From the NCBI GenBank assembly GCA_964594835.1, contig CAZQNA010000009.1:1-50592 (forward strand): a DNA stretch of 50,592 nucleotides. The letters are read 5' to 3'. Position 1 is the stretch's first letter; each line of letters starts with the position of its first letter. The notes below the pieces were generated by a model. That model ran no database searches and had not been told where the DNA came from. It worked only from the letters and a program-made list of their open reading frames with translations. Below are positions 9,432 to 10,265 of this stretch, one piece after another. The DNA comes from an uncultured Nitrososphaerota archaeon. Its GTDB lineage: Archaea; Korarchaeota; Korarchaeia; Korarchaeales; Korarchaeaceae. A program made the translations under genes and the position numbers.

Positions 9432-10265
9432 ATGCTCGGCGCGGAGAACGCCCCCCGATGTCCAGTCGACGGCTCTCATCTCATACTAGAGGACGGCTGC
9501 CTCGTCTGCCCGACTTGCGGGAGGGTCTGGGGAAGGTCCTCCCTCCCGACGCGGCACAGCGGCGGGGGCAGGATGAGGCTTCCGAGGCTCGATGCCCTCC
9601 GGACGCTGGAGGACGCCCTTGAGGTGCCAGAGTCCGTTAGATCGGCCGCAGAGGGGCTCATGGGGATCTACCTCTCAAGGACTGGGGACAGGGCGTCGGG
9701 CGCCCTGGCTGCGGCGTGCCTGCTGGCGGCCGGCAGGAGGGTGGGGTACCCCCTGACGCTCGGCGAGGTCCTCGAGGCCCTCTCAGCGGTGAGGGTGAGG
9801 CCCGTCAAGCCGGGATGGGTCCTAAAGAGCCTCGAACTGCTGAAGTCGACCCTCGGGTTCGTCGAGAGGGCCCCTCCAGAGTACTACGTGGGCGCCGTCA
9901 TAAGGGGGCTCGTGAGGTCGGGGGTGGACCTGAGGGGCATGGAGGAGATCATACGGATCAGGGCCCTGGACATCCTGAGGGGGGTCGGAGCCCCCGGTGG
10001 GCCGCTGACGGGAAAGAACCCGAGACACGTCGCCGCAGTAGCGGTTCTCCTCGCCATGGAGAGGGTCGGATTTCCGACCAGGCTGAGGAGCGGGGCTCAG
10101 ATGCCGTTCAAGGAGCTGCTCAGGAGACTCGGGCTGGGGAAGAGCAGGTGGAGGGAAACCGCCAAGCTGCTAGAGGAGGGCCGGAATCGTGAGCACGGTC
10201 GCGAAGATGGCGATGTCAGCCGCAGAGAGGCGGCCGCCTCTCAGGTACCCCGCGGCGCACGCTAA
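9432..10265 (+). CDS. Divergent transcription factor B (TFB/TFIIB) paralog
   Basis: Zn ribbon CPVD...CPTCG; cyclin repeat 1 (LEVPESV, ALAAACLLAAGR, YPLTLGEV); repeat 2 (PEYYV, LTGKNPRHVAAVAV). Confidence 0.8.
   Translation: MLGAENAPRCPVDGSHLILEDGCLVCPTCGRVWGRSSLPTRHSGGGRMRLPRLDALRTLEDALEVPESVRSAAEGLMGIYLSRTGDRASGALAAACLLAAGRRVGYPLTLGEVLEALSAVRVRPVKPGWVLKSLELLKSTLGFVERAPPEYYVGAVIRGLVRSGVDLRGMEEIIRIRALDILRGVGAPGGPLTGKNPRHVAAVAVLLAMERVGFPTRLRSGAQMPFKELLRRLGLGKSRWRETAKLLEEGRNREHGREDGDVSRREAAASQVPRGAR

Follow-up and report, generated by a model that had tools for sequence, protein, structure and literature searches.

A window of 50,592 nucleotides (the whole stretch of contig CAZQNA010000009.1 that was analyzed) from an uncultured archaeon contains a short TFB-like gene at positions 9432..10265 of the + strand, referred to here as the window paralog. 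The archaeon comes from hydrothermal vents and is represented by metagenome-assembled genomes only; the host contig is archaeal, with a G+C content of 66%. The gene is an additional, shortened TFB copy located within a pilus gene cluster. It keeps the TFB core, lacks both B-reader and B-linker, and carries a changed recognition helix. All three promoters of the cluster share a short element at the B recognition element (BRE) position. Judged from sequence, the window paralog may be a TFB-derived promoter factor dedicated to its type IV filament (Tad/Epd-like) cluster, using a BRE-like element of its own with either a positive or a negative effect. The chances for and against this reading were considered evenly balanced. 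The gene and its parts are as follows.

9432..10265, + strand: window paralog, ATG start, 277 amino acids and a stop codon; from the open reading frame (ORF), PF00382, AlphaFold2, Foldseek and the ratio of nonsynonymous to synonymous substitution rates (dN/dS).
9456..9536, + strand: Zn-ribbon-like module, residues 9–35, C10-x2-D13 ... C26-x2-C29 with an extra C23.
9537..9581, + strand: disordered linker, residues 36–50, replacing B-reader and B-linker; from the predicted local distance difference test (pLDDT), spacing and dN.
9582..9854, + strand: cyclin-like repeat 1, residues 51–141, five helices; from Pfam, AlphaFold2 and Foldseek.
9876..10205, + strand: cyclin-like repeat 2, residues 149–258, five helices; from alignment, AlphaFold2 and Foldseek.
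10107..10172, + strand: helix-turn-helix (HTH) of repeat 2, residues 226–247; from invariant columns and the comparison table.
10206..10262, + strand: disordered charged tail, pLDDT 41–53, overlapping the 3' end of the convergent prepilin-peptidase gene.

Sequence matches of the window paralog were weak. The TFIIB repeat model PF00382 matched with 24.9 bits (cut-off 23.6, E 2e-5), and human TFIIB matched with E 0.0015 in a search of PDB sequences. The NCBIfam full-length TFB model NF001658 gave 19.8 bits against a cut-off of 384, so the curated model was not reached. The three-dimensional structure was predicted by AlphaFold2 with a 20-row alignment (mean pLDDT 77, pTM 0.62). Foldseek ranks 1–30 in the PDB were solely TFIIB, TFB, Brf1 and Brf2 chains; the P. 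woesei TFB core (1ais_B) aligned to the model with a TM score of 0.69 and a root-mean-square deviation of 4.2 Å over 203 columns. Since the sequence matches were weak and the top structural ranks all belonged to TFIIB, TFB and Brf, the family was settled by structure, and by its predicted fold the window paralog is a member of the TFB/TFIIB family. The original prediction, made from the letters alone, had called it a TFB paralog with both cyclin repeats. PF00382 and Foldseek bore this out, helices were placed at residues 51–141 and 149–258, and the cyclin fold, whose absence had been named as a counter-sign, was matched. The genome also encodes one canonical TFB and one TBP. The surrounding filament cluster, the broader short-TFB clade and the third TFB-family gene of the genome were not part of the original prediction.

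Other identities were rejected. Cyclins proper first appeared at Foldseek rank 31 (TMq 0.25–0.35), and no Pfam cyclin family matched. A Brf/TFIIIB70-type protein would have a long C-terminal extension, and the core of the window paralog is followed by just a disordered tail of ~19–30 residues. The presence of both cyclin repeats and the HTH excluded a protein of the Sulfolobales TFB3 type, which would combine ribbon and coiled coil and lack cyclin core and HTH. For a viral or defence origin, no PHROGs or PADLOC families were matched.

The window paralog shares a ribbon-like N-terminus and two cyclin-like repeats ending in an HTH with canonical archaeal TFB (the gene on contig C10 of the same genome; P. 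woesei core 1AIS/1D3U), and is 30% identical to the canonical TFB of its genome in the alignment. It differs in the absence of ~55 residues, a shorter ribbon loop, an Asp ligand, a recognition helix with only 3 of 12 residues in common, and fast evolution. Because the reader and linker, the canonical helix and a match to the curated full-length model were all lacking, it was filed as a variant and not as a TFB ortholog.

The translated ribbon reads C10-P-V-D13 ... C26-P-T-C29 with one more cysteine at position 23, so that the CxxD...CxxC pattern described earlier was found, C23 being additional. Beta strands were predicted at residues 18–20, 23–25 and 32–35, and the block at residues 11–30 had a pLDDT of 83. 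The module can be aligned to the TFB ribbon, its loop being 3 residues shorter. D13 was retained in 4/4 intact orthologs of the genus, and C23 in two of these, the other two having Leu; in relatives further away the pair is the usual C-x2-C. At the second ligand position, His is found in human TFIIB (alignment with PDB TFIIB), so a non-Cys ligand falls inside the family range.

The loss between ribbon and core was measured in a comparison set of 46 TFB-family genes from 23 of the order's 38 genomes. Counted from the final Cys of the ribbon up to the L-x-L-P motif's conserved Pro (P66 in the window paralog), the spacing was 37 residues in the window paralog, compared with 92–93 in 11/11 canonical TFBs of the order. 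In the clade of short TFB-like genes described below, it was 36–39 residues in 17 ribbon-bearing genes of family f1 and 52 in two g6 members. About 55 residues are gone from the window paralog, spanning the B-reader (DWRAF) and the B-linker. All 11 canonical TFBs carry the [DE]WRAF motif, which is missing from each of the 35 remaining rows. In the AlphaFold2 model, the last ribbon strand stops at residue 35 and cyclin helix 1 begins at residue 51, which leaves a linker of ~15 residues, with pLDDT below 50 over residues 38–49. No reader or linker of the window paralog can be placed in the cleft of RNA polymerase (RNAP) with 15 residues. By its sequence, the window paralog is without B-reader and without B-linker. 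The lack of an EWRAF-type reader was thus foreseen correctly, and the B-linker is missing too; the predicted short gap between ribbon and cyclin repeat also held, at about 15 residues and not about 20. By analogy with published B-reader and B-linker mutants and with P. furiosus TFB2, the open-complex function of the window paralog may be altered.

The recognition helix was compared next to that of the canonical TFB of the same genome (contig C10), which carries DWRAF and GVTEVTVRNRYKEL. The aligned helix of the window paralog is GLGKSRWRETAKLL (residues 234–247). From G to K, 3/12 positions were identical (G, one R and K), and the canonical BRE-reading helix GVTEVT(V/I)RNRYKEL was not kept, in agreement with the rewired helix of the original prediction. 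The HTH fold was retained in the model, with helices at residues 226–232 and 237–258, and a 7-residue genus-specific insert lies ahead of the HTH in repeat 2. Within the genus the helix was GLGKSRW(R/K)ETA.L, invariant despite an overall protein identity of 49–72%, and this HTH differed from that of every other short-TFB subclade. The HTH-coding DNA lies outside the antisense gene overlap.

The integrity of the gene was investigated in the five genomes of the genus (g1), namely the window's own genome (G000) and G003 to G006. The dN/dS between orthologs was 0.21–0.31 over 247 codons and 0.11 for the closest pair, G005/G006. Between G000 and G004, dN was 0.158 in the ribbon and 0.948 in the linker; the omega of the ribbon was 0.14 between G000 and G006. 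In the tail (residues 248–277), dN/dS was near 1. The low dN of the ribbon relative to the linker favours translation from the first ATG over Met48, the start in the public gene call P0001. These values indicate, at the sequence level, that the window paralog is under purifying selection. The 3' ends of the TFB-like gene and the prepilin-peptidase ORF overlap convergently by 96 nt (10170–10265), and the overlapped tail is disordered.

Pseudogenisation had been named as a sign against the prediction. Purifying selection was found, and the frame was intact in 4/5 genomes of the genus; in the G003 ortholog (contig C51; L039/L006), which is otherwise 90% identical, the frame is interrupted by two stop codons at a distance of six bases (GGA to TGA, GAG to TAG; both G-to-T). 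These stops may reflect pseudogenisation or an assembly or sequencing error. The gene was present in four DNA runs from two studies, one labelled hydrothermal vent metagenome; the search for runs with the gene turned up no RNA run. Contigs from a run of the second study spanned it without indels and with identical sequence; a minor variant alters two N-terminal codons (9442 and 9454). A decaying duplicate without function would agree with the very weak family scores (NCBIfam 19.8 vs 384, Pfam barely above threshold), the long branches of the clade and the two stops of the G003 copy. Such a duplicate was considered most improbable in view of the dN/dS values, the four intact frames, the invariant HTH, the confidently predicted fold and the identical sequence in the second study's run.

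The upstream regions of two operons in three genomes were aligned, and the pattern GGCCCY-N3-TTWTAT was derived. In the window, all three promoters of the cluster have GGCCCY, three variable bases and a near-consensus TATA (TTATAT or TTTTAT), with the hexamer at the BRE position.

6868..6882, + strand: GGCCCCGCC-TTATAT, + operon; ATG at 6904, 27 nt after the first T of TATA; orthologous sites in G003, G004 and G006.
13343..13357, − strand: GGCCCCGCC-TTTTAT, pilin candidate, upstream of 13023..13313.
15865..15879, − strand: GGCCCCGCG-TTATAT, − operon; ATG 27 nt after the first T of TATA.

A start codon 27 nt past the first T of TATA fits leaderless transcripts. The three pattern matches in the window compare with 0.00 expected (none in 100 shuffles), and the pilin-candidate element, the third match, was not used in defining the pattern. 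The 1.82-Mb genome has four matches, three of them at the cluster promoters. The five genomes of the genus together gave 15 matches, 14 of which were at the three orthologous promoters (G003 3/3, G004 3/3, G006 3/3, G005 2/2, G000 3/4), compared with one match for the reversed-pattern control. No match was found outside the cluster in G003, G004, G005 and G006. Genomes of other genera had 0–2 matches each, like their controls. Among 210 candidate promoters, defined as a TATA followed by a long ORF (80-codon limit), exact GGCCCC occurred 4 times at offset −9 and 0, 0, 0, 0, 0, 0, 0, 1 and 0 times at nine other offsets; the + operon promoter was left out of this set because its first ORF is too short. 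The bulk candidate promoters of the genome showed a weak preference for A at −4 (frequency 0.38). Conservation did not extend to the positions flanking the element, which means that the promoters do not represent three copies of some longer repeat. The original prediction of a new DNA specificity gains indirect support: GGCCCY stands at the BRE position of each of the three cluster promoters and is nearly absent elsewhere, a pattern in the sequence that is consistent with such a specificity.

The fourth match in G000 is on contig C17 (13973–13987, +), 35 nt ahead of a 104-aa ORF (MPVVKTPGVLGG...), after a second HerA-like gene.

The cluster around the window paralog consists of two convergent gene sets. 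The window paralog closes the + operon at its 3' end, and this operon converges on the − strand set.

6904..9374, + strand: operon upstream of the window paralog, a 77-aa protein and five small proteins; syntenic in the genus.
6904-7137, + strand: 77-aa helical protein, first gene of the + operon; no family; tblastn.
7134-7556, 7559-7822, 7940-8209, 8200-9129 and 9126-9374, + strand: five small proteins with N-terminal hydrophobic segments; ORFs.
10170..10808, − strand: prepilin peptidase, A24 family; PF01478, 30.9 bits against a cut-off of 26.5.
10550-11128 and 11098-11826, − strand: two TadB/TadC-like membrane proteins; for 11098-11826, PF00482 T2SSF with 22 bits, below the cut-off of 25.2.
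11610..13010, − strand: secretion-type ATPase, T2SSE/TadA-like; PF00437, E 9.7e-16.
13023..13313, − strand: Flp-like pilin candidate, 96 aa, ...ERG|VTQTVEQALLIAATIAAFF..., kept in the g5 cluster.
14536..15843, − strand: ParA/MinD-like (TadZ-like) protein, first gene of the − operon; PF01656 (CbiA) weak, 16.5 bits against a cut-off of 25.4; P-loop GTGGAGKTT.

The order of the − strand set is the ParA/MinD-like gene, two genes without assigned function, the pilin candidate, the ATPase, the two TadB/TadC-like genes and the peptidase. For the assignment as a Tad/Epd-like cluster, the peptidase and the ATPase were above their Pfam cut-offs, and T2SSF, CbiA and Flp_Fap were below theirs. The protein at 10550–11128 was named by position and by synteny with genus g5; the pilin candidate scored 13.8 bits for PF04964 Flp_Fap (cut-off 32.2), and its pilin-like N-terminus is conserved in g5. 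None of the six small proteins of the + operon matched a family in the Pfam search; by position only, the five with hydrophobic segments are pilin- or pseudopilin-like. The full cluster was present in the two genomes compared with long flanking DNA, G004 and G006, and in G003 and G005 the flanking genes were syntenic as far as the compared DNA reaches. Upstream of the − operon lie the housekeeping genes for ribosomal protein L37e (15920–16111), an LSm protein (16150–16485) and the termination factor FttA/aCPSF1 (16955–18886).

A homologous cluster, laid out convergently in the same way, occurs in the sister genus g5; in it the last membrane-protein gene abuts the peptidase gene. No TFB-like gene was found near this cluster, and the g5 clusters gave no match to the promoter pattern. 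The window paralog was therefore added to a pre-existing cluster.

The relatives of the window paralog were then considered. A protein search gave five matches at E ≤0.01, one of them the window's own (among 8000 candidates scored of 5.8 billion clusters), and nine representatives were found at E ≤0.001 among 1.84 billion, one being a low-complexity false match. The window paralog family is rare in public data. In a whole-genome search of the 38 genomes of the order, each reasonably complete genome had one slow-evolving canonical TFB and at least one short TFB-like gene. There was one TBP gene per genome. In the maximum-likelihood tree of the 46 rows, the canonical TFBs formed one clade with short branches (support 100/99), and the short genes formed a 33-row clade on a long stem of 1.27 (support 100/99), with a conserved HTH sequence of its own in each subclade. 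The alignment and tree that had been proposed as a check placed the window paralog in this separate clade, and it has the traits of the clade: it lies apart from the canonical TFBs, has a spacing within 36–39 residues and lacks [DE]WRAF.

In genera g3, g4 and g5, the short gene is flanked on one side by an rpoG-like gene (in g3, PF16992 at 28.5 bits, cut-off 27) and on the other by a membrane HerA-like ATPase (PF01935). The genome of the window also has such a syntenic copy, ribbonless, on contig C12. Its TFB family therefore totals three genes (the canonical one, the C12 copy and the window paralog), with one TBP. The window-type gene represents a locus of a fourth kind, found only in genus g1, in 5/5 genomes. 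In the tree, the window copy grouped with the rpoG-adjacent genes of g3 and g4 (95/94) and not with the C12-type genes of its own genus. The approximately unbiased (AU) test of a single g1 clade gave p 0.048, and the branches are long; the tree speaks against a duplication inside the genus, and the window copy may stem from a recent duplication or from an older paralogy.

The gene string of rpoG-like gene, short TFB-like gene and membrane-anchored HerA-like ATPase recurs across the order, at ~31100–33980 of contig C12 in G000 (L025:5099-7980) and, for example, at L019:8034-11072 in g3. In the C12 string, the rpoG-like gene was assigned by position only and the HerA-like neighbour matched generic HerA models only. 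In g3, the TFB-like gene and the ATPase are separated by a conserved small ORF, coiled-coil-like and ~40 aa long. The regions upstream of the g3 short TFB genes, inspected for a comparable cis element, are conserved and AT-rich. The canonical TFB and the single TBP of G000 are near neighbours on contig C10 (32080–34624; L082, L001), with one ORF for a 215-aa membrane protein between them.

These neighbourhoods bear on a further explanation, in which the window paralog has no connection with the hexamer. It would have a general or different role of the short clade, for example with Rpo8/RpoG or the HerA-like ATPase; another factor would read GGCCCY, and the position in the cluster would be incidental. 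The conserved place of the clade in g3, g4, g5 and on C12 indeed adjoins rpoG-like and HerA-like genes, not pilus genes; a neighbourhood of rpoG and COG1405 has been in print since 2007 (PMC2234397, in the passages available); and G003 retains the elements though its copy has two stops. The window-type gene is, however, additional, as the rpoG/HerA-adjacent copy is still in the genome. Its HTH is distinct from that of every other subclade and invariant in the genus, and element and gene co-occur in the genus and are both missing from the homologous g5 cluster. This explanation was considered quite unlikely.

The hexamer stands at the BRE position, which in TFB is read by the C-terminal HTH, and the reading helix of this HTH is the one whose place is taken in the window paralog by a basic sequence, invariant in the genus. 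On these two grounds, a private factor-element pair was the most economical reading. In the proposed mechanism, the two cyclin repeats would bind the single TBP on bent TATA DNA, as in TFB, and the rewired basic helix (K237, R239, W240, R241 and K245) would read the G/C-rich hexamer instead of the usual A-rich BRE. The factor would occupy only the three cluster promoters, that of its own operon included, and would be autoregulatory. As a dedicated initiator comparable to an alternative sigma factor, it would recruit RNAP by its ribbon, and TFE together with high temperature would be needed for opening. With the alternative sign, the factor would keep the promoters closed against canonical TFB. 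The initiator was slightly favoured over the repressor. The stronger form of the proposal, in which the rewired HTH and GGCCCY are an orthogonal TFB-BRE pair driving only the three filament-cluster promoters, as an archaeal counterpart of an operon-linked alternative sigma factor, was considered unlikely. A paired structure prediction of TBP residues 18–202 and paralog core residues 50–258 gave scores of 0.00 and 0.00 against a mark of 0.32, and counts neither way on binding.

In an alternative reading, the window paralog is a repressor or poising factor specific to the cluster; DNA targeting is the same as in the dedicated-factor reading, and only the sign differs. Its core would bind TBP and DNA at the GGCCCY promoters and exclude canonical TFB, and no open complex would form until it is removed. 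This alternative was rated somewhat unlikely. B-reader and B-linker are wholly deleted, and mutations or deletions there abolish opening according to the available parts of PMC13502027 and PMC6212726. The ribbonless relatives suggest that the core alone is enough for the function of the clade. TFS4 provides a precedent for a basal-factor paralog turned inhibitor (PMC7289017, as excerpted), and a gene inside one of the target operons fits negative autoregulation. The ribbon, on the other hand, is under purifying selection in the genus, as shown by its dN relative to that of the linker, and a pure competitor has no need of a ribbon. The near-consensus TATA and the non-A-rich BRE position also resemble dependence on a special factor more than an operator laid over a normal promoter.

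Several points weigh against a promoter factor dedicated to the cluster. The ribbon model PF08271 gave no match in the window paralog even at E up to 10, and the second ligand is Asp. The ribbon was absent from 14 of the 33 short-clade rows (by regular expression, with start codons unverified), so RNAP recruitment may not be the core activity of the clade. Since B-reader and B-linker are required for opening in the TFBs studied, an initiator role would need a work-around. The hexamer could be read by another regulator or by canonical TFB itself. Besides the window paralog, the 77-aa protein (6904–7137) is also a candidate genus-specific regulator of the cluster, with tblastn matches within the genus only and none in the g5 or g2 clusters. 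G003 retains all three elements, and if its stops are real, the element outlives the factor. The pattern was set after two promoters in three genomes had been seen; the observations independent of that choice are those on the third promoter and on the remaining genomes, and the scarcity of the element genome-wide. The contrast between g1 and g5 amounts to one independent comparison, and the G+C of the two genera is not the same (about 0.65 vs 0.41).

Related systems have been described. The role of HTH2 and the BRE is treated in the available passages of PMC4581349, PMC6212726 and PMC7289017, and B-reader and B-linker were needed for promoter opening in the TFBs studied, as far as PMC13502027 and PMC6212726 were available. 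P. furiosus TFB2 has a non-canonical B-reader and B-linker and is opening-deficient, with partial rescue by TFE or pre-melted templates (PMC13502027, in part). It is a natural TFB paralog like the window paralog, but its N-terminal region is full-length and divergent, and that of the window paralog is deleted. The description of TFB2 in the available part of PMC13502027 includes no dedicated cis element or link to a gene cluster.

TFB3 of Sulfolobus is an activator of the ups pili and of the ced genes (PMC6101594, available passages). The ced genes encode a DNA-import system whose motor is a membrane ATPase (PMC6101594 and PMC5817253, in excerpt), and a hexanucleotide motif is essential in ups promoters (passages of PMC5817253). 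TFB3 keeps the ribbon, has a coiled coil in place of the absent C-terminal HTH, and works together with canonical TFB (PMC6101594, same passages). A truncated TFB paralog, type IV pilus genes (putative in the window) and a short conserved promoter motif are common to both cases. Going by this partial description of TFB3, the window paralog is set apart as the opposite truncation, with core and HTH kept and reader and linker lost.

A COG1405 TFIIIB/TFB paralog was reported beside rpoG in Thermoproteales and a korarchaeote (Koonin et al. 2007, PMC2234397) and beside RPC34 (Blombach et al. 2009), both sources being available in passages. This neighbourhood matches the usual place of the short clade beside the rpoG-like gene in most genomes of the order. 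The passages mention no domain architecture, reader or linker loss, promoter element or copy in a pilus cluster. The rpoG-adjacent copy of this genome is a different gene from the window paralog and is on contig C12. Bacterial extracytoplasmic function (ECF)-type alternative sigma factors offer a functional analogy only, in being encoded in their regulon, autoregulated and directed to a private element by a C-terminal HTH; their protein family and mechanism are different. The analogy of sigma region 4 and TFB HTH2 is discussed in PMC4581349 (available part).

Some further work concerns these subjects. Micorescu et al. 2008 reportedly dealt with TFB2, and Werner and Weinzierl 2005 are said to have studied TFB N-terminal mutants. 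Lagrange et al. 1998 reportedly concerned the eukaryotic BREu, and Littlefield et al. 1999 the BRE contacts.

Alternative TFBs are known, and promoter selectivity by a private BRE is poorly documented. A literature search, with most subscription journals and supplements outside it, found no core-keeping TFB with reader and linker deleted, no TFB in a pilus cluster and no such element. If the window paralog is an initiator, it would call into question whether the contacts of B-reader and B-linker are indispensable. If the orthogonal pair is true, RNAP would open and start without reader and linker contacts that are thought universal for TFB/TFIIB. If it is a repressor, a new route from basal factor to gene-specific regulator would be indicated. 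The gene also gives a first functional handle on the wider, unstudied clade of short TFB-like genes beside rpoG. The factor, three candidate target promoters and a natural negative control (the g5 cluster without factor or element) are all defined by sequence; a test of the hypothesis is therefore feasible with recombinant proteins and 50-bp DNA fragments, even for an uncultured organism.

Other features were observed in the remainder of the window. The G+C content dips to 0.46 at 32001–33400, over a 366-aa methyltransferase-domain ORF (32251–33351, −) whose 5' end overlaps a tRNA gene (33327–33400, −). At 33685–34191, an Auto_anti-p27 zinc-ribbon protein was found (PF06677, E 1.1e-15), the ribbon of which weakly matched the TFB-family profile. 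Seven tRNA genes lie between 24144 and 49046, and four of them are 86–104 nt long, which suggests introns or long variable arms.

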